64,000 nt of DNA from assembly GCF_056746865.1 (NCBI RefSeq), contig NZ_CM163382.1; one strand, written 5' to 3'. How positions within the stretch are numbered: position 1 is the first letter of the stretch; each line of letters opens with the position of its first letter. This document shows, piece after piece, positions 1 through 9,315 of the stretch. The notes beneath the pieces were generated by a model. The model searched no databases. It was given only the letters and a program-made list of their open reading frames with translations, and was not told where the DNA came from. The position numbers and the translations under genes were made by a program.

Positions 1-718
1 GTGCTTCCGCCTGGAGGTAACGCCGTCCGTCAGTTTTGACCTCACATTTCATGCGATGGTTGCCACTCCAGCCCAGATGTACGGCCCACACCTCGCCCTG
101 CTGTTCTGAGAAACCGGGGGCACCGGCAATCAGTGCCGGAAAATGCTCATGGGACGTGCGGCCCCGGCGGTTCTCCAGCACAAAACCGTCATGTGTGAGA
201 CGGACCCTGTGCGGCTGAAACTCACGAGTCCAGCGTCCGTGGAAGGCCATGACTTCCTCTGCCCTTTCAGCCACAGGGAGCGTGATGGCGAAGCGGTTCA
301 CCTGCCAGTCCCCTTCACGGAGGTTCGTCAGGGCATGACGCATCTTCAGCACACCGGACGATGTCAGCACCAGTTCACTGACCATGCGCAGACCCGCCAC
401 TGCATCCTCACTGGTCAGGGTGAGTGATTCTCCGGCCTGTACCACGCTGATGGTACGGAACACAGGGGACGCATCCAGCCCGTTGCGGTGTCCCTCCAGC
501 CCCGGCGAGCCAAAAAGTCCCGCGCCGTTTTCGGCCATCAGCGTCAGTGGGGTGTCGGTATCCAGACGACCATTCGCAACCGGCCTTTCCAGGCTGATAC
601 AGTCATCCGGTGAAAAGTGTTTCAGGGTGGATCCCCACCAGACAATCTCTGCATACGGGTGGGTTTTAATAATCAGGTCTGAGTGGGGACTGGTCAGCCT
701 GCGGTACATCGGTTCCAT
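1..718 (-). CDS. alpha-galactosidase-like protein (RafA-like), 5' portion only; runs off the left window edge
   Basis: Open frame on the minus strand from ATG at 716-718 (translation MEPMYRRLTSPHSDLIIKTHPYAEIVWWG...) with GGAG about 8 nt upstream, translated by hand and open to position 1. Not in the ORF track because it has no stop in the window. Family assignment is from context (LacI-type repressor plus twin operators directly upstream) and an RRGRTSHEHFP-type motif recalled from GH36 enzymes. Confidence 0.5.
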   Translation of the reverse strand, partial: MEPMYRRLTSPHSDLIIKTHPYAEIVWWGSTLKHFSPDDCISLERPVANGRLDTDTPLTLMAENGAGLFGSPGLEGHRNGLDASPVFRTISVVQAGESLTLTSEDAVAGLRMVSELVLTSSGVLKMRHALTNLREGDWQVNRFAITLPVAERAEEVMAFHGRWTREFQPHRVRLTHDGFVLENRRGRTSHEHFPALIAGAPGFSEQQGEVWAVHLGWSGNHRMKCEVKTDGRRYLQAEA

Positions 719-755
719 AAGACATCTCCGTTTTCGGGTATGCCTTACTGTTGAT

Positions 756-790
756 CCGAATCGTTTCGGATAGCAACCGAAACGATTCGA
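756..790. promoter_or_regulatory. twin palindromic operator-like sites (ccgaatcgtttcgg / ccgaaacgattcga) between the repressor gene and the alpha-galactosidase start
   Basis: Two 14-bp near-palindromes at 756-769 and 777-790 that are reverse complements of each other (13/14), separated by 7 bp, 38-70 bp upstream of the ATG at 718. Confidence 0.55.
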
Positions 791-811
791 ATTTGTGAGC
801 GGGATTAAAAA

Positions 812-1822
812 TCAGGCGGAGGGAGCAAGCGTTGTCTTGCCAGGATGAAATTCCGGCTGCCAGAGTACTTGTAGCATTTCAGGTGAAACATTCGTGACCA
901 GCTGGCGTATCATGTCGTCAATCTGACGACCGACGCGATGTCGTGTTGACTGAAGAACTGCAGCCACATCCTGTTCAATAATACTGTCCTGCGGCAGACC
1001 ATCATAAACCACAAGAGAGACGGCATCCTCTCCGGACAGATGACCGGATAACTGCAGCGACATGGCCGCGCCATCACCGATCAGGTCACTGTCGGTAATA
1101 ATGGCCGTCGGGGGAAGCGGAAGTGACATTAACTCAGTCACTGCCTGGAAACCTGAGCGTCGGGTGGGAGAGACCCGGCGTAGCCAGGTCTCAGGCAGAC
1201 CATGTTCACTCAGGGCATCGCGCCATCCCTGACGTCGTGCAGTGACATAGGCACGGGAGTTGTCCTCACTCAGCAGGGCAATTCGCTGATGGCCCAGGGC
1301 AATCAGGTGCTGTGTGGCCTGCCAGGTTCCTGCATGGTTATCAAAGTCAAACCAGGCACAGGGAAGACCGGACGGCACCTGACCGAGTGCCAGAAACGGA
1401 ATACCGGCCTCCTGCAGGTGTGTAAGACGCGGGTCATTATCCATCGTGTGCGCCACGATAAGGGCATCAACCCGGCGGCTTTCGACCAGACGCATATAGC
1501 TGTGGCTGTCAGCCCGTTCATCATCGGCTATCAGCAGTAAGTCAATATCATGGCGGGCCAGTTCCCGGCTGATACAACTGACCATATCCACAAACACACT
1601 ACTGCTGAACAGTACAGCATGTTCAGGGAAGACCAGGCCGACCGCATCGGTTTTACCGGTTTTGAGACGTCTTGCCAGGGTATTCGGGCGATAACCACGA
1701 CGCCGAGCTTCCGCTTCTACACGTGCACGGGTCGAAGCGGAAACGTCCGAAAATCCGCCAAGCGCCCGGCTGACTGTGGTGACAGAGATCCCGAGTTCGG
1801 CGGCGATAGCCTTGAGTGACAT
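812..1822 (-). CDS. LacI-family transcriptional repressor (RafR-like), 336 aa
   Basis: ORF 812..1822; N-terminal LacI-type HTH (LKAIAAELGISVTTVSRAL); AGGAG 7 nt upstream of the ATG. Confidence 0.75.
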   Translation of the reverse strand: MSLKAIAAELGISVTTVSRALGGFSDVSASTRARVEAEARRRGYRPNTLARRLKTGKTDAVGLVFPEHAVLFSSSVFVDMVSCISRELARHDIDLLLIADDERADSHSYMRLVESRRVDALIVAHTMDNDPRLTHLQEAGIPFLALGQVPSGLPCAWFDFDNHAGTWQATQHLIALGHQRIALLSEDNSRAYVTARRQGWRDALSEHGLPETWLRRVSPTRRSGFQAVTELMSLPLPPTAIITDSDLIGDGAAMSLQLSGHLSGEDAVSLVVYDGLPQDSIIEQDVAAVLQSTRHRVGRQIDDMIRQLVTNVSPEMLQVLWQPEFHPGKTTLAPSA

Positions 1823-2156
1823 ATTTTCTCCTGCGGATAACTGAACAGCCCTGTCCCTGATGCGGGTGATCCGGGCAACAAACCTGACAGAGACGCCTGC
1901 ATAAGTGGTCGCGCTGTACCAGTATGAGCCTCCATCATCCTGATTTGTGTATTAACTTTCAATACCGGAGGACGATTTGATTACCGGTTGTTAGCAGGAG
2001 TGCGAATATTAGACCGACGGTGGAGATCTAAGACTCAGTGAGCATAGCGATACACTATATTACTGTAATTAAGCCAGTAAACTTCCTGTTCACTGGCTTA
2101 AACGCTAATGATGTATGCAGTTGAACAAGCTTTTAAACTAATGATTAATTGATATA

Positions 2157-3245
2157 TAGACTGGCCCCCTGAATCTCCAGACAATCAATATCACTTAAAT
2201 AAGTGATAGTCTTAATACTAGTTTCTAGACTAGTCATTGGAGAATAGATGATTGATGTCTTAGGGCCGGAGAAACGCAGACGGCGTACTACACAGGAAAA
2301 GATCGCTATTGTTCAGCAGAGCTTTGAACCGGGAATGACGGTCTCCCTTGTTGCCCGGGGATGGGGAGTAAGCTTAGTCAGCCGTTGTCTCCGGGTGTCG
2401 CGTGCGCAGTTGCACGTCATTCTCAGACGAACCGATGACTGGAAAGATGGTCGCCGCAGCCGTCACTCAGATGATACGGATGTGCTTCTCCGTATACACC
2501 ATGTTATCGGAGAGCTGCCCACGTATGGTTATCGTCGGGTATGGGCGCTGCTTCGCAGACAGGCCGAACTTGATGGTATGCCTGCTATCAATGCCAAACG
2601 TGTTTACCGGATCATGCGCCAGAATGCGCTGTTGCTTGAGCGAAAAACCGCTGTACCGCCATCGAAACGGGCACATACTGGCAAAGTGGCCGTGAAAGAA
2701 AGCAATCAACGATGGTGCTCTGACGGGTTCGAGTTCCGCTGTGATAACGGAGAAAAACTGGGGGTCACGTTCGCGCTGGACTGCTGTGACCGTGAGGCAC
2801 TGCACTGGGCGGTCACTACGGGCGGCTTCGACAGTGAAACAGTACAGGACGTCATGCTGGGAGCGGTGGAACGCCGCTTCGGCAGCGAGCTTCCGACATC
2901 TCCAGTGGAGTGGCTGACGGATAATGGTTCATGCTACCGGGCTAATGAAACACGCCAGTTCGCCCGGATGCTGGGACTTGAACCGAAGAACACGGCGGTG
3001 CGGAGTCCGGAGAGTAACGGCATAGCAGAGAGCTTCGTGAAAACGATAAAGCGTGATTACATCAGTATCATGCCCAAACCAGACGGGTTAACGGCAGCAA
3101 AGAACCTTGCAGAGGCGTTCGAGCATTATAACGAATGGCATCCGCATAGTGCACTGGGTTATCGCTCGCCACGGGAATATCTACGGCAGCGGGCCAGTAA
3201 TGGGTTAAGTGATAACAGGTGTCTGGAAATATAGGGGCAAATCCA
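2157..3245 (+). mobile_element. IS2 derivative with an internal deletion of about 242 bp (1089 bp here against about 1331 bp for intact IS2); no 5-bp target-site duplication
   Basis: Left end TAGACTGGCCCCCTGAATCTCCAGACAA at 2157 and right end GGGGCAAATCCA ending at 3245 match the IS2 termini as I recall them. Flanks gatata / atggcg are not a direct repeat. Confidence 0.85.
2248..3234 (+). CDS. IS2 transposase, in-frame fusion of the first ~37 codons of orfA (InsC) to orfB (InsD) created by the internal deletion; 328 aa
   Basis: ORF begins [37 protein letters not shown] (InsC N-terminus) and continues [20 protein letters not shown]... (InsD). The junction lies at a GCCCGG motif; the full identity of the short repeat on the two sides is from the remembered IS2 sequence. 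Confidence 0.8.
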
Positions 3246-3440
3246 ATGGCGCAGATACGCTTGCGGATCGATACCATTCAGACAGCAGGTCCGTTCACTA
3301 CCGTAATCGCTGCCGAAGAACACATTGATTGCCCCTCAATAATCCTGCCGTCAACGTCAAAATTGCTGGTCGGGCTCGACTTATTTAATTGTGTAAACAG
3401 GGCCTCTCAGCGAAAGGCCCTTATGCATCACCTGACGTCG

Positions 3441-4007
3441 TTAAAAGTCACTACACCCAAGATGACGTTCAATGGCACCATGCGATTCAATGTAAGCCTG
3501 GGCCGTCTGTTCCAGTACACCAGGCTCAGCGTTGTATGTGTTAGCTGCATCAAATACCAACGACAGCACTTCAGGATACACAACCAGATGTGTAATGGAG
3601 TTATCTTCACCCAATACTTTTCCCCACGCCTGCTCAATCAGATTTCTGAGAGCCACCACCTCACGACTCTTACACCAGACATCGTTATTAAGTAGCAGTA
3701 CCATAAGATAAGGAGTGGTATCGTTAGCCACAGCTTCCCTACTCCAGAGATAATATAAAGGGGCGGGCTCAACAGATTTATCTTTACGTCGCTTGCACTG
3801 CAAATATTCAGAAATTAGTCTATGCAGTTCACCAGTAAAATCAGCCATCAGAGAGGGAATTGCCTTGTTCATACCTGGGCAAGGTATTAATTTAAATTGT
3901 AATAATTTAATTTTAGGATGTGTAGCTGCAGCCCGATACAGAGTTGCAAGGACATACTTTTGCCAGAGGGCGTTACAGGAAAGCTTAACGTTTGATTCTG
4001 TATACAT
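3441..4007 (-). CDS. hypothetical protein, 188 aa, co-transcribed with the upstream Gp2-like gene (27-bp gap)
   Basis: ORF 3441..4007; AAGGTG 8 nt upstream of the ATG; no recognisable motif. Confidence 0.5.
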   Translation of the reverse strand: MYTESNVKLSCNALWQKYVLATLYRAAATHPKIKLLQFKLIPCPGMNKAIPSLMADFTGELHRLISEYLQCKRRKDKSVEPAPLYYLWSREAVANDTTPYLMVLLLNNDVWCKSREVVALRNLIEQAWGKVLGEDNSITHLVVYPEVLSLVFDAANTYNAEPGVLEQTAQAYIESHGAIERHLGCSDF

Positions 4008-4034
4008 AATAAATCACCTTACAGTTACAATAGG

Positions 4035-4649
4035 TCAAAAACCGCTGTAGCCAAAGTTACGCTGGCCTGATGCTTTAGTGTCGAGCTTCGTCAGATAATC
4101 CAGACGTGCCAATAAGCGCTGATATTGCTCAGGGAAATCAGGATCGTTAATATCCAGGATGTAACGTCCATTAGCAGGGAAATGAACTAGTCCCTGGTGA
4201 TCTTCCAGTTCTAACCCTAAGGCACTGTACCAGGCTCCGGTAATTAACCCTCTCAGGGTGTCAGAGCGCTCATAGTCTCCCAGGTGGTAATAGGCGTCTT
4301 TGTTAAAAAAAAGGCAGACGTGATAATGACATTTAAAGGACTGCGTATATTCTTTCGCCCAGATAATACAAACCGACGTTGCGTAGGTGCGTTTGCCTTG
4401 TTGTTTTTTACGGTGTTGATCTGCATTAATTTTCGCATTCAGCGAGTTACGGAAACGAGATATCTCTCCGGGACTCAGGTTAGGAAAACAGGTAATGGTA
4501 TCCCCGTTGTCAATCACGGGAGGATAATGGAGATCCACCCGTATTGCCGTTATTCTGGGATGTTTCTGGAAGAGGTTATTCACCTGGTTTCTTATTTTTA
4601 ACCCGTGAGCCTCATGACATTCACCGTAAAGAGTTTCAATCGTAATCAT
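4035..4649 (-). CDS. YagK/YfjJ-type (inovirus Gp2-like) protein with an HUH-type motif, 204 aa
   Basis: ORF 4035..4649; motif KCHYHVCLFF (H-hydrophobic-H) followed by tyrosines (YYHLGDY); AAGGA upstream. Family call is from memory of similar proteins in P4-like cryptic elements. Confidence 0.55.
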   Translation of the reverse strand: MITIETLYGECHEAHGLKIRNQVNNLFQKHPRITAIRVDLHYPPVIDNGDTITCFPNLSPGEISRFRNSLNAKINADQHRKKQQGKRTYATSVCIIWAKEYTQSFKCHYHVCLFFNKDAYYHLGDYERSDTLRGLITGAWYSALGLELEDHQGLVHFPANGRYILDINDPDFPEQYQRLLARLDYLTKLDTKASGQRNFGYSGF

Positions 4650-5030
4650 GTTAATATTCCTTTTGCTTTCAGAGATAAGCTAATAGTTAACCTACCCAAT
4701 ACACAACAGAAGCAGATATTAATATTCGTATCAGTAGTTCCCAGAGGGATATATAACCCTCTGGGCGTCAATTAAGAAAAACGCTACTGCCTATTGTTAC
4801 ATTAGAGAACAGGATGATGTTACACAGTTACATTAGAACGTTCTAAAACATTAAACAGAGTTATGATCTACACACAACTAATTATTTGGTATCAGAATAC
4901 CATTAGCTCTATTAGTACATCATATCCATCATTACACATATACTATACATCACAGATATAATATATATTACCTATCCAACGCACATGTATTTATAACTCC
5001 ATTGCCAATAGCTACAAGGACTATAAAATG

Positions 5031-5591
5031 TTACTCTGCAGTTAGATCAACAATACCTTTATCCCAGTGTCTTTTTACAGTGGATAAACTGATGCTTAAT
5101 TTTCTGGCTGTTTGTGACTGACTGAACCCCTGCAATTTCAACTGTCTGATATTTTTACTATGAATACTCCCTTCTTTCCTTCCTGGTTTTCTTTTAATTT
5201 TCCGGATACTGATGTCGGGAATTTTTCCTCTAATATCTGTAGGTAAAATCATCCCGGTGAGTACCACAGGAATATCATCACCATCCGGCAACTCTGATGA
5301 CGTAAAAAAGCAAATATTAATACCTTGTCTGATACTTAAAGATAAAACCTCCTGTATTTTTTCCGGCGTATTACCAAAACAAGTTAACGATTTAGTAATC
5401 AGAATATCACCCCTTTGCATATCCTGCGTCAGGAGTCGAACTAACCGTTTTCTGTCTGCCAGAGTATAATCCGGGCGACCCAATTCGCCTGTTAACTGCA
5501 ATAGTGGTTCTTTAAAATATCTCTGAATCATGGATTTTAAGCGATTAAGTTTTGACCATTTTTCAGAGTCTATGTATGCAAAACTCGCCAT
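5031..5591 (-). CDS. serine-recombinase (resolvase)-like DNA-binding protein, probably catalytically inactive, 186 aa
   Basis: ORF 5031..5591. GDILITKSLTCFGNT aligns by eye to the resolvase GDxLVVxxLDRLGRS motif but lacks the two Arg; N-terminus FAYIDSEK instead of YxRVSTxxQ; C-terminal HTH (TARKLSISLSTVKRHW). Confidence 0.5.
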   Translation of the reverse strand: MASFAYIDSEKWSKLNRLKSMIQRYFKEPLLQLTGELGRPDYTLADRKRLVRLLTQDMQRGDILITKSLTCFGNTPEKIQEVLSLSIRQGINICFFTSSELPDGDDIPVVLTGMILPTDIRGKIPDISIRKIKRKPGRKEGSIHSKNIRQLKLQGFSQSQTARKLSISLSTVKRHWDKGIVDLTAE

Positions 5592-5812
5592 AATGCCTCA
5601 AACTGGTGTCATGAATTAATTATTGAACCTGTTTTTTCCTGAGTCGCATTACTCTTTTCTAAGGGAGGCTCTCCAGATACATCGGAAAAGTACTCGATAA
5701 AAGAGTTGGCCACTCCCGGGTAATGATTGCTCTCTTTAACCTCAGAAAGCGGTTTCTGTTCATCATTTACACCACGATTTCTGGGTTATGAATAAATCTA
5801 CGCGGGCCATAA

Positions 5813-6559
5813 TCATTCATCTTCAAATGGGTTAATAATAATAACATCTCCACCTGTTCTGGAACTTTGTGAAACTTCCTCTGTTCTCAGAACAGGCACT
5901 ATTACAGCCTTATTATTGATATAAAAAATCGGAATATGAAAAGTACAAAATCCTGTACTACGAATCTGATGTCGCCTCACTGTTTCTTTCGTACCATACT
6001 CAATCAACTCATCTATCGGCAGGCAAACTGAATTGCAAAAGTCAAAAAAATAATCCCCAAAAACACTGGTTTTAATCAGAATGGTTTTATAAAACCCTCC
6101 TGCACGATTCAGGGTATGGGAAACTTTTCTGTTCGTGTAAATACAAATTGCCTTCTCAACTTTATAATATTCCAGCATTAAGGTCGCATTCTCTTTAATT
6201 CCCTTTTTCTCTGCAACTCCCATAGCATTTCTGGTGCTTTCATGAGGAAATATCTTTCTATCGAGAACATCATATTCATATTTGATATGCGATTTATAAA
6301 TGCTATGAAAAAACTCTCCTTTTGTTATTTCAGGCTTTGTCCGTTGCACAAATGGTTCCTCATTAAAAAACTGACGTAGCTTATCCTCTATATCAGTTAT
6401 AGCAGCAATATTTTCATTTATCCTGTTTAAAACAGGAGCCCCTAGCTTTAAACACTCTTTAATCGCTGCTGAAAATGAGCATTTTTTTAAATGCTGATAC
6501 TTTTTAATTACATCAGCTTCATATGTTTCTGCAAGAGAGAAAGAGACACGTTTCATCAT
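5813..6559 (-). CDS. hypothetical protein, 248 aa; N-terminal ~45 aa resemble a ribbon-helix-helix DNA-binding fold, C-terminal ~200 aa unassigned
   Basis: ORF 5813..6559; strong RBS AAGGAG 5 nt before ATGATG; AT-rich coding sequence; N-terminus KRVSFSLAETYEADVIKKYQ...FSAAIKECLKLG has a strand-helix-helix pattern. Confidence 0.55.
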   Translation of the reverse strand: MMKRVSFSLAETYEADVIKKYQHLKKCSFSAAIKECLKLGAPVLNRINENIAAITDIEDKLRQFFNEEPFVQRTKPEITKGEFFHSIYKSHIKYEYDVLDRKIFPHESTRNAMGVAEKKGIKENATLMLEYYKVEKAICIYTNRKVSHTLNRAGGFYKTILIKTSVFGDYFFDFCNSVCLPIDELIEYGTKETVRRHQIRSTGFCTFHIPIFYINNKAVIVPVLRTEEVSQSSRTGGDVIIINPFEDE

Positions 6560-6621
6560 GAAACTCCTTTTTAATTATAAAATTAAAATATAGAAATATA
6601 TATTATTCTGATACTATAAGG

Positions 6622-6849
6622 TTAATACTGACTAATCCACCACAATAGATCACTTAATAACCACCCACAGGATTTCTTTCCAATAGTTTTACGTGGCGGG
6701 AATTTTCCTTCACGTTCCAGTTTCCAGGCTTGTGAACGAGAAATAGACGTAATTTTCTGGCGTTCCTTTTCTCGTACCAGTCTGTCACAGGTGTATCCAT
6801 AGATCTTCAAAATTGATAAACGGTTCTCATCTCTTAACGGCTTCCACAT
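6622..6849 (-). CDS. AlpA-family prophage transcriptional regulator / excisionase-like protein, 75 aa
   Basis: ORF 6622..6849; SRSQAWKLEREGKFPPRKTIGKKSCGWLLSDLLWW resembles the AlpA HTH core; AGGAGA RBS. Confidence 0.65.
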   Translation of the reverse strand: MWKPLRDENRLSILKIYGYTCDRLVREKERQKITSISRSQAWKLEREGKFPPRKTIGKKSCGWLLSDLLWWISQY

Positions 6850-7628
6850 ATTGCTCTCCTTATATATTCATGATTTTCAGATTGTATATGCATGTGAGCT
6901 GCTCAAATCACTACATCTATCTGTAGTGGTATGCTGTTGAACAGCACCAGCAACTCACGAGCAAAACAATACATTTGCACAACCAAGAAATCAAATTGCG
7001 AGAAATGATTTAATTAACTGACTTCTAATAACACAATAACAACAAAGAAAGTCACAATATAAAAATAACTTAAACAATGCTTTTTGGTATACAAAATAAA
7101 AATCAAAATCACAATATTCGTAGGTTATTTTATGCAGACAAAAACAAAAAAAATCTTGTTATAATCTATGATATCAAGAGGAGGGGTAGTGACCAAAAAT
7201 TCTCCCCAGAAAAGCCCCCACAACATTAGTTTGAAAACGTGACGAAGTTCACAAAATTATCTTCTGGCGATAATAGAACTTGTAAGAGGGAGTTGATTTT
7301 TGCCAACTTTCTAAAGCTAAAGTGCAGACAAAAGATAATAATTGAATGAAAACGATACATATTTTCAGATGAAAGTGACGTGACTGTAGAGGGCTATAAC
7401 CGTAAAATCATTTGCGTCCTGAGCAATATGCAACAAAAGGGAATGCTCGTAAAAAAATCAGGAATAAACGCTAAGGATATCGTATTAGATTCAGCATCGT
7501 ATAATGCCACTGCATAACTGATTCCCATTTCGTAGAGGCTGTTAACTCTGTATCAATGTCCTGACAAAGGACTGTATCAAGTTTCTCTACTGGAAACAGC
7601 TATGCAATAGACGGAAGAATTTAACATT

Positions 7629-9233
7629 ATGGTAACTAAAAAGGTAAAAACAAACCACCCGTACTATCGTGTTTTATCCGGCACCTCCATGCCGTTTCCC
7701 CACATACATGAAGCTGTTTCCGAACAGTTGCTTCTACTCATTTTCAAAGCACGCAGATTGTATCTGGATCCAGAATATCGTCCTTGGTTTGATGAACAAC
7801 ATCGGATTCTCTCGGCATTACGCGCTAACACAAAACTCCAAAGTATTTTAGAGAAAAACAGAGAGAACTACTCCATAAGTGAGACCGATAATCCACTATC
7901 TAAAGATCTGTATGCTGCTTTTCAGGTTATGTGCCATTTATACAATGGTTTTGATAACAGACTCGTCAGCCTGAAAACCTGGGGAGATATGAACAGGGAA
8001 CCAACAGCAAAATTTGTCGGCCAAAATAGTGGTGGCTGGAAAACACCTGAGATGGAAGAATTCGTCAGAAACGATTTGTTCAATATTCTGACAGATTGTA
8101 AAGCTCATTGCTCACCACTTCCCGCTCTGGTTCGACAAGGATATTGCCATCAGGATCTTTCTGTTGCGCACTCATGTACTAAAGAATTACTGGAACAACT
8201 GAACCGATACCATCAAATTGATGAATCAGCGATACTTGCCAGAACCCTTGGTTTGGCTATTAACAACTGCTATCACTCAGAAACAGAGATTCCTGAATGG
8301 CTTTCTCCTTTTGAAAATGAATACAAAAGTCCCTGGAATTGTGAGAAACCAGATACTAACGATGTGAGTAAACTTAGAAAACAATTGCTAACAATCGGGC
8401 GTACAGAATTCGTGGACAAAATGTTTTCGCTAGCCAACAAAAATGCAACAAAGATAATATATGATGGATACGTTAAACTTTATGCTCTGGAAATATATGA
8501 ATGGTTAAATAAATTAGTGCAATATTTTAAAGGAAATGATTTTATTCGTTACACCTGGAAGTTCACAACAATTATTTCCGATGAAAGTGACACGATTGAA
8601 AACACCACCGCATGGGAAAAAGACTATTGTCAAATCACTATACAGCGTGATGAACTTCTGAAACTGATTTATACCAATACCCTGCAGGATGCAGCAATGA
8701 ATCTTGCTGATTGCCTGCAACAGGCATACACAGAACCGTTAAAAATGGAAATAAATTATCCAGGAATAAACATTGATGCAAAAGAGCGTAAAATTAGAAA
8801 ATCTATTGAATTCAGGAGCGAACTGAATAACTTCACAAACATCATGAAACAACTGGAAATATTTGAAAAATGGTATAACGCCAATAAAATTCTGTTGGTA
8901 AGTAACAAAAAGATACGTACAGAAAAGATTGACGTGAATATTCGTCTTGCAGGACTAAAAGGCTATGATCTGAATGAAGGTATACCTGATGGTCAGGGAC
9001 GCAGAATTAAAGATGGTGTAAATGAACTTGTCAAGGCAGATGGCAGTCTACAACTTCCACAAGATATCAGTGACACTTCGCTTAACCGTTACCGTCAAGC
9101 AGTTCAACACATTATTAAGGATGAGATCGACACGTTGCTGATAGCACAGAGGGAAAAAAATAAAATAAATCCATATAGCGAAGATAGATACTCGATACGA
9201 CCTTTATGGGGAAAATGTCTGGTCGAACAGTAA
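7629..9233 (+). CDS. hypothetical protein, 534 aa, no domain recognisable by eye; integrase-proximal cargo
   Basis: ORF 7629..9233; GGAAG upstream of the ATG; AT-rich; preceded by a 780-bp AT-rich non-coding region. Confidence 0.6.
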   Translation: MVTKKVKTNHPYYRVLSGTSMPFPHIHEAVSEQLLLLIFKARRLYLDPEYRPWFDEQHRILSALRANTKLQSILEKNRENYSISETDNPLSKDLYAAFQVMCHLYNGFDNRLVSLKTWGDMNREPTAKFVGQNSGGWKTPEMEEFVRNDLFNILTDCKAHCSPLPALVRQGYCHQDLSVAHSCTKELLEQLNRYHQIDESAILARTLGLAINNCYHSETEIPEWLSPFENEYKSPWNCEKPDTNDVSKLRKQLLTIGRTEFVDKMFSLANKNATKIIYDGYVKLYALEIYEWLNKLVQYFKGNDFIRYTWKFTTIISDESDTIENTTAWEKDYCQITIQRDELLKLIYTNTLQDAAMNLADCLQQAYTEPLKMEINYPGINIDAKERKIRKSIEFRSELNNFTNIMKQLEIFEKWYNANKILLVSNKKIRTEKIDVNIRLAGLKGYDLNEGIPDGQGRRIKDGVNELVKADGSLQLPQDISDTSLNRYRQAVQHIIKDEIDTLLIAQREKNKINPYSEDRYSIRPLWGKCLVEQ

Positions 9234-9315
9234 CTCACTGAGAAAGGGGATAGCAGTTCGCTATCCCCAAAGGAGACTTTCCAGCAAGATCTCAAAAAAT
9301 GAGACACTCAGCAAA

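Follow-up and report, generated by a model that had tools for sequence, protein, structure and literature searches.

The predicted regulatory head of a raf-type raffinose operon on a chromosomal island of Escherichia coli, compared with plasmid-borne and other raf loci

In the lac operon, the cyclic AMP receptor protein (CRP) binds at −61.5, the main operator lies over the transcription start, and distant auxiliary operators form loops. The csc regulon (cscR, cscA, cscB, cscK) is an accessory chromosomal module with a LacI-family repressor, a GH32 invertase, a LacY-type permease and a fructokinase; it differs from the raffinose (raf) operon in having no α-galactosidase, a divergent arrangement and other operators. 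The abstracts of Aslanidis and Schmitt are said to place two raf operators, O1 and O2, on either side of the −35 box. The genes rafRABD and rafY have been summarised (PMC4809568), and PMC13056197 cites the two-operator raf papers and gives melibiose as a reported RafR ligand. Chromosomal raf operons in E. coli have already been noted in a study that connects the use of raffinose with adaptation to the soy-rich diets of poultry and pigs (PMC12987596), and a chromosomal location is therefore not new. Here we describe positions 1–1822 of a 64,000-nucleotide stretch of contig NZ_CM163382.1 (assembly GCF_056746865.1), which we call the window. These positions are very probably the regulatory head of a raf-type raffinose operon, carried on the minus strand of an accessory chromosomal island of E. 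coli. The system is essentially ordinary, a diverged and mostly chromosomal copy of the raf operon known from E. coli plasmids since 1989; little about it is new. This allele forms a third class, its cluster carries an additional Crr paralogue, its operators are variants, and its leader has a hairpin whose arms covary.

Genes and control region of the raf head

The gene at 812..1822 (minus strand, 1822 to 812) is an intact open reading frame (ORF) for a rafR-type LacI/GalR repressor of 336 aa. Its profile matches are LacI/GalR-family models only, none reaching the equivalog cut-off (NCBIfam), and its ligand domain has the homologue 3qk7 (E 2.5e-76), with LacI, PurR and CcpA among the other PDB homologues. 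The protein has the LacI/GalR architecture of an N-terminal helix-turn-helix (HTH) and hinge helix followed by a C-terminal periplasmic-binding-protein-like sugar domain, and PF00356, PF00532 and PF13377 are the precomputed Pfam matches of a 99%-identical cluster representative. TTVSRAL and ARRLK show no variation in the family alignment. We take the TTVSRAL stretch to be the recognition helix, and it is the same in the window protein and in classical RafR; residue 49, in the hinge, is Leu in the window allele and Gln in the classical protein. An earlier note on this DNA, made from its letters alone, had seen here a LacI-family repressor of the raffinose type. Both parts of that claim stand, as the regulator groups with RafR (78% identity to the classical protein) and its next relatives all lie upstream of rafA-rafB in other Enterobacterales.

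After a spacer of 93 nt (811 to 719), rafA begins on the same strand with ATG at 718 to 716, and its first 239 codons (1..718, minus strand) are open to the window edge, as the earlier note had said; the note also had the same-strand order right, and omitted that the strand is minus. Residues 23–235 of this partial RafA are the GH36 N-terminal domain (Pfam PF16875, Glyco_hydro_36N, E 6e-43), which was found by Pfam, the 239-aa fragment having no match in NCBIfam. The nearest solved relatives of the full RafA of 708 aa, taken from near-identical genomes, are all GH36 α-galactosidases, and RafA contains the stretches KWDMNR and SGGGRID, which we take to be GH36 catalytic motifs. The domain makes the product an α-galactosidase and not a member of a non-glycosidase family.

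The spacer contains two 14-bp sites, which repeat search, motif search and conservation identify as predicted operators. O2, the promoter-proximal site, lies at 756..769 (769 to 756 on the minus strand; CCGAATCGTTTCGG on the plus strand and CCGAAACGATTCGG on the coding strand), and O1, the promoter-distal site, at 777..790 (790 to 777; CCGAAACGATTCGA on the plus strand and TCGAATCGTTTCGG on the coding strand). The two are mutual reverse complements at 13 of 14 positions and are 21 bp apart from start to start. Counted from the coding-strand sequence, O2 is self-complementary at 12 of 14 positions and O1 at 10 of 14; a program found one 14-mer in the spacer with self-complementarity of at least 12/14. 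The repeat search returned an inverted repeat with 16-nt arms (754–769 and 777–792) that are 94% complementary and 7 nt apart, and none of 3000 dinucleotide-preserving shuffles of the spacer contained a 16-nt inverted repeat with one mismatch or fewer. The motif CCGAAWCGWTTCGG with up to two mismatches matched twice in the window, at O1 and O2, where about 0.9 matches were expected.

The earlier note had placed these reverse-complement sites 3' of the repressor gene and over the likely promoter of the next one, and both placements hold. O1 and O2 bracket a −35-like hexamer, TTGCTA, at 771..776 (776 to 771, minus strand). A weak −10-like element, CAACAG or AACAGT, would lie 17 or 18 nt past this hexamer at 747..753 on the same strand; both elements were read from the sequence. 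A putative CRP site, TTTAA-N6-TCACA, matches 8 of 10 consensus positions at 794..809 (809 to 794, minus strand), and its centre would lie about 60 bp before the probable start of transcription. The coding strand of the spacer reads TTTTTAATCCCGC-TCACA-AAT-(TCGAATCGTTTCGG)-TTGCTAT-(CCGAAACGATTCGG)-ATCAACAGT-AAGGCAT-ACCCGAAAACGGAG-ATGTCTT-ATG, with O1 and O2 in parentheses.

This arrangement suggests how the head may work. RafR would be made from its own promoter upstream of rafR, presumably within 1823..2156 (minus strand). A candidate is TTGAAA-17-GATGAT at 1962 to 1934, in a consensus scan whose matches were about as many as expected by chance. A motif search of the window returned no operator-like site upstream of rafR, which fits unregulated synthesis of the repressor. 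RafR dimers would bind O1 and O2, each a near-palindrome with a central CG, and since the operator centres are 21 bp, or two helical turns, apart, both dimers would sit on the same face of the DNA. Because the operators bracket TTGCTA and O2 fills the spacer up to the weak −10, RNA polymerase would be excluded. The CRP-like site might make this weak promoter dependent on cyclic AMP–CRP, and an α-galactoside inducer would free RafR from the DNA. RafB would then import raffinose, RafA (GH36) would convert it to galactose and sucrose, and RafD (GH32) would split sucrose into glucose and fructose; these steps are predicted from the enzyme families and from PMC4809568.

The raf head resembles lac in its repressor family, in a LacY-like permease, in the expected release of the repressor by a galactoside and in a CRP-like site near −60. 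It differs from lac in that its operators are adjacent and flank the −35, in that rafR reads straight into the operon across 93 nt, and in that the enzyme is a GH36 α-galactosidase and not a GH2 β-galactosidase.

Relation to other raf loci

As the classical reference we used present-day classical-type loci (protein cluster P0052, L003–L005), a proxy for pRSD2; the RafR reference sequence was that in S1 Fig of PMC13056197 (GenBank AM886293.1), which falls in the same cluster. These loci are mostly in IncFII plasmid contexts and carry rafR, rafA (708 aa), rafB (425 aa), rafD (476 aa), a kinase gene and a Porin_8 gene (464 aa). The window type, whose genes beyond the start of rafA were read from near-identical genomes, has the same gene order, orientation and protein lengths (336, 708, 425 and 476 aa). 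Its 93-nt spacer also agrees in length, in the pair of 14-bp operators placed around the −35 with a spacing of 21 bp, in the TCACA half-site, in the Shine-Dalgarno sequence and in the leader hairpin. The rafR-O1/O2-rafA layout that the earlier note had likened to plasmid raf operons is thus confirmed, and the two sites align with the classical twin sites.

The sequences themselves are far apart. Protein identity to the classical type, synonymous divergence (dS) and the ratio of nonsynonymous to synonymous divergence (dN/dS) are 78% (335 aa), 1.04 and 0.134 for rafR; 87%, 1.30 and 0.059 for rafA; 88%, 1.49 and 0.051 for rafB; and 83%, 1.56 and 0.059 for rafD. Synonymous sites are saturated, and the genes are under purifying selection (dN/dS 0.05–0.13). 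The DNA of the window type aligns with the classical locus over 6.0 kb (79% identity), beginning about 22 nt before rafR and reaching the stop codon of rafD. Homology is weak onward in the kinase gene, does not cover the Crr and DUF2913 genes that the window type has between rafD and the kinase gene, and in this DNA comparison the porin (498 aa in the window type vs 464 aa) had no match in the classical locus. The rafR promoter also differs; homology to other raf alleles is lost 10–52 nt before the rafR ATG. A query of the classical type matched, among complete E. coli genomes, 19 records at 95% or more, 457 at 90–95%, which are probably of the P0051 type, and 227 at about 79%, which are of the window type. 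On sequence grounds, the window allele appears to be an old, functional and separately acquired relative of classical plasmid raf rather than a recent copy of it; it is a third, deeply diverged raf allele class in E. coli.

The operon body lies to the left of the window and was read from two genomes, ET670 and F374, that are 99.9–100% identical over the raf stretch. Window positions 1–2250 are 100% identical to E. coli ET670, and at least 80% of them is present in 246 of 5426 complete E. coli genomes (about 4.5%); roughly another 8% of complete E. coli genomes account for the two classical-like alleles. Positions 1–25000 are 99.9% identical to strain F374, in a context common to 199 genomes. 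The F374 cluster runs from the regulator through an α-galactosidase (708 aa), an MFS permease (425 aa), a GH32 hydrolase (476 aa), a Crr paralogue (171 aa), two DUF2913 fragments and a PfkB kinase (308 aa) to a carbohydrate porin (498 aa). The lengths of 708, 425 and 476 aa are, we assume, those of RafA, RafB and RafD, and rafA, rafB and rafD are full length and intact in ET670 and F374. The permease is LacY-like (TIGR00882/PRK09528; oligosaccharide MFS/galactoside permease in NCBIfam), and the hydrolase gene, which overlaps rafB, is of the scrB family. Other NCBIfam matches are a phosphotransferase system (PTS) IIA-Glc and a fructokinase, both above cut-off (the equivalog cut-off for the former), and a LamB-like porin. 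The leftward extension proposed in the earlier note thus led to a permease and a sucrose hydrolase, in near-identical genomes.

The Crr paralogue (L006 23436–23951; L001 7254–7769) lies between rafD and the kinase gene and is followed by the split DUF2913 gene. It is 59% identical to an E. coli Crr sequence. Neither gene is present in the classical raf loci examined (L002–L005). IIA-Glc is reportedly a regulator of the Raf permease, and a dedicated IIA-Glc copy in a raf cluster is curious.

A scan of one genome per species gave rafR homologues in 80 loci (L007–L086) from Klebsiella, Raoultella, Enterobacter, Cronobacter, Dickeya, Rahnella and others. The genes rafR, rafA and rafB are syntenic in nearly all of these loci, and no rafD adjoins them. 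They share with the window the regulator (52–70%), the GH36 enzyme (59–80%), the permease and the gene order, the leader hairpin, and mostly the twin operators with the same consensus and spacing. They differ in that the GH32 invertase is not adjacent, in that the Rahnella type keeps one strong operator only, and in that the clusters appear to be resident in the chromosome and not island cargo. About 50 loci from other genera have a spacer with CCGAAACGTTTtGG and CCGAAACGTTTCGG exactly 21 bp apart, and more distant genera (Rahnella, Ewingella, Hafnia) have kept one perfect or strong operator. A GH32 rafD beside rafRAB was seen only in E. coli- or Salmonella-associated and metagenome variants (L001–L006, L087, L089, L091–L092).

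The consensus of 56 distinct control-region sequences, anchored on O2, is G.TCAC.-O1-GGTT..TAT-O2-ATCAAcAnT, with most operator positions conserved at 90% or more; the family consensus is CCGAAACGTTTCGG for O2, in which each position reaches this level, and CCGAAACGTTTtGG for O1. In the CRP-like site of these loci the right half, G.TCAC, is near-invariant and the left half is weakly conserved. Between the window and the classical allele, which has TTGATA at the place of TTGCTA, 80 of 93 spacer positions (86%) are identical, while 56–66% of synonymous sites differ. The window operators depart from the consensus at their centres, with TCGAATCG in place of CCGAAACG in O1 and CGATTCGG in place of CGTTTCGG in O2. 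These two central A/T transversions are mirror-placed about the −35, which explains why the two sites look like mutual reverse complements. L037 and L089 have single changes at this central position; the position therefore tolerates A or T, plausibly because it is contacted in the minor groove, in which A-T and T-A pairs resemble each other. Covariation of residue 49 with the operator core was considered and rejected, because relatives with Leu-49 (Rahnella, L020, L031, L053) have the standard core AAACGTTT. The comparison thus defines a consensus for the RafR operator, CCGAAACGTTTCGG in two copies spaced by 21 bp, and shows which of its positions can vary.

Several points weigh against reading positions 1–1822 as the head of a raffinose operon. 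Both operators depart from the near-invariant core AAACGTTT (O1 has AATCGTTT and O2 has AAACGATT), and O1 begins with TCG and not CCG, so that affinity could differ. The −10 of the rafA promoter is a poor one that the consensus promoter scan missed, and the transcription start is a predicted position. For this allele we infer binding, induction and growth on raffinose. The operon body lies outside the window, and its integrity in the source genome is deduced from near-identical genomes; in one of these, ET670, an insertion sequence (IS) truncates the distal kinase gene, and the annotation shows no porin gene beyond it. The last point, with a DUF2913 gene split into two ORFs, would also suit a decaying remnant in which IS2 beside rafR, together with IS elements along the island, has inactivated the module and raffinose use has been lost. 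An IS2 copy without target duplication does lie 334 nt upstream of rafR, at a junction where genomes differ, and complete rafABD was found in only 23 of 45 rafY-positive isolates (PMC12987596). We nevertheless consider decay quite improbable, as rafR, the rafA N-terminus and the control region are intact and the control region is constrained, the exact RafA, RafB and RafD proteins each occur on at least 1000 contigs with dN/dS at the low values given above, and the closest genome to the window, F374, has the whole cluster, porin included.

It is also very improbable, the more so for the conservation described above, that the inverted repeat at 754–769 and 777–792 is not a pair of operators and instead forms an RNA stem-loop on rafR read-through transcripts, acting as a terminator, pause or processing signal. 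The spacer RNA does fold with a 16-bp O1:O2 stem (minimum free energy −33.9 kcal/mol, z −5.2), and the two central positions at which the window departs from the classical allele (A to T in O1, T to A in O2) compensate for each other in the stem. But O1 and O2 are each LacI-type palindromes centred on CG, and pairing is trivial between any two palindromes of this kind; the stem is not followed by a U-tract, and no terminator was called there. Across the 56 distinct loci the operator positions are kept as sequence, with no compensatory pairs, and the central changes in L037 and L089 are single and uncompensated, which argues for recognition by protein and not for RNA pairing. A cluster serving mainly another α-galactoside, such as melibiose or stachyose, like the invertase-less rafR-rafA-rafB of Klebsiella and Enterobacter, is unlikely too. 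Melibiose is the reported RafR effector (PMC13056197), and a rafD homologue stands beside rafRAB in 0 of the 80 loci from other genera, yet the window type has the GH32 gene, a fructokinase and a porin, the full raffinose set, as in the classical operon. None of the three explanations fits the evidence well. The practical value of identifying a raf operon here lies mainly in annotation: RefSeq leaves the operon unnamed and calls the regulator a "substrate-binding domain-containing protein".

The rafA leader hairpin

The rafA leader is predicted to fold into a hairpin at 719..746 (minus strand), with a 5' arm AAGGCAT (746 to 740), a 14-nt loop and a 3' arm ATGTCTT (725 to 719). The loop contains the Shine-Dalgarno sequence GGAG (729 to 726), and the 3' arm stands directly before the ATG. 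Inner CCG:CGG pairing is also predicted, and the AU of the start codon pairs with UA 5' of the arm (747 to 746). The fold of 749 to 716 has a minimum free energy of −13.2 kcal/mol (z −4.8). The arms change together across homologues (at the corresponding positions in L003–L092), which have the arm pairs AAAGCAT/ATGCTTT, GGACAT/ATGTCC, CATCAT/ATGATG, GGGCAT/ATGCCC, CCTCATC/GATGAGG and CAGATATC/GATATCTG, and in Rahnella, with ACTCCAC/GTGGAGT, the Shine-Dalgarno sequence itself is paired. Folds with z < −1.64 were obtained for 31 of 41 homologues, and in a register-fixed test the pairing of each arm with its own partner beat permuted arms in 10000 of 10000 permutations. In a covariance-model alignment, 5 of 9 pairs had double changes, 91% of cells were paired (31–55% in slid controls), and 0 of 500 shuffles reached the covariation score, although the hairpin figures are favourable estimates because the alignment was built to fit the structure and the sequences share ancestry. 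RNAalifold on a MAFFT alignment, in which the arms were out of register, did not recover the hairpin, and Rfam had no family match in 1–3400, the hairpin included.

The hairpin's 5' arm follows the −10-like element directly, and its 3' arm fills the interval from the Shine-Dalgarno sequence to the AUG. The 5' arm would thus probably lie at or before the start of rafP, and with no terminator between rafR and rafA, the hairpin may form only on read-through RNA. Tentatively, therefore, this conserved and covarying stem-loop could be a translational insulator that forms only on rafR read-through transcripts, a possibility that we hold to be the less likely one. It would silence rafA on rafR transcripts and leave rafP transcripts translatable. 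The alternative is an ordinary 5'-terminal hairpin that stabilises the transcript or tunes its translation. The hairpin is the one element of this locus that might teach something new: if the insulator reading is true, it may explain how leaky expression is prevented when a repressor gene stands immediately before the operon that it controls.

IS2 and the island

The earlier note had placed the module on the chromosome, on an island and next to an IS2, and it was right in all three. The IS2 copy occupies 2157..3245 on the plus strand and was recognised by the NCBIfam TnpB model (688 bits, cut-off 597), by its ends and by comparison with the intact IS2 in the classical-type locus L003, relative to which it lacks about 242 bp internally. 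This deletion lies at the short repeat TTGCCCGG and joins orfA codons 1–43 in frame with orfB in a 328-aa ORF (2248–3234), in which TnpA residues 1–43 are fused to TnpB residues 6–301. With orfA largely deleted, the copy is defective. Its ends are TAGACTGGCCCCC (2157) and GGGGCAAATCCA (3245), which we take to be the IS2 terminal sequences, and no 5-bp target-site duplication is present at its flanks (ATATA and ATGGC). To the right of IS2, ET670 has an ISL3 fragment and a lacI/maltoporin/galactan cluster, and the window has inovirus Gp2-like genes; the divergence of the genomes at this point makes IS2 a recombination junction.

All three E. coli raf alleles have IS2 copies or remnants of IS2 ends 32–334 nt upstream of rafR. 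The copies compared (L003 6566–7898; L091 1622–2953 and 3804–3844; window 2157–3245) are 96–97% identical. Since synonymous divergence among the raf alleles is saturated, and the insertions differ in position and orientation, IS2 appears to have become associated with the region upstream of rafR repeatedly and independently.

The island ends in a tyrosine integrase gene (about 10042–11358) adjoining the core genes nfeF, nfeR and aer. ARAGORN found no tRNA gene in the 64-kb window, so the integration site at this end is not a tRNA gene. Carriers of the window allele mostly have the same island beside nfeF/aer, and only 9 plasmids in PLSDB carry the allele. Between IS2 and the core genes (about 3441–11358) the island has two genes of the inovirus Gp2 family, several hypothetical genes, a gene for an HTH regulator and the integrase gene, which abuts nfeF. 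In F374, the island upstream of raf (L006 6130–15538) is annotated with a type I restriction-modification system, two DUF262 proteins and an Hhe anti-phage protein, and the same stretch contains a group II intron inside an IS3-family element.

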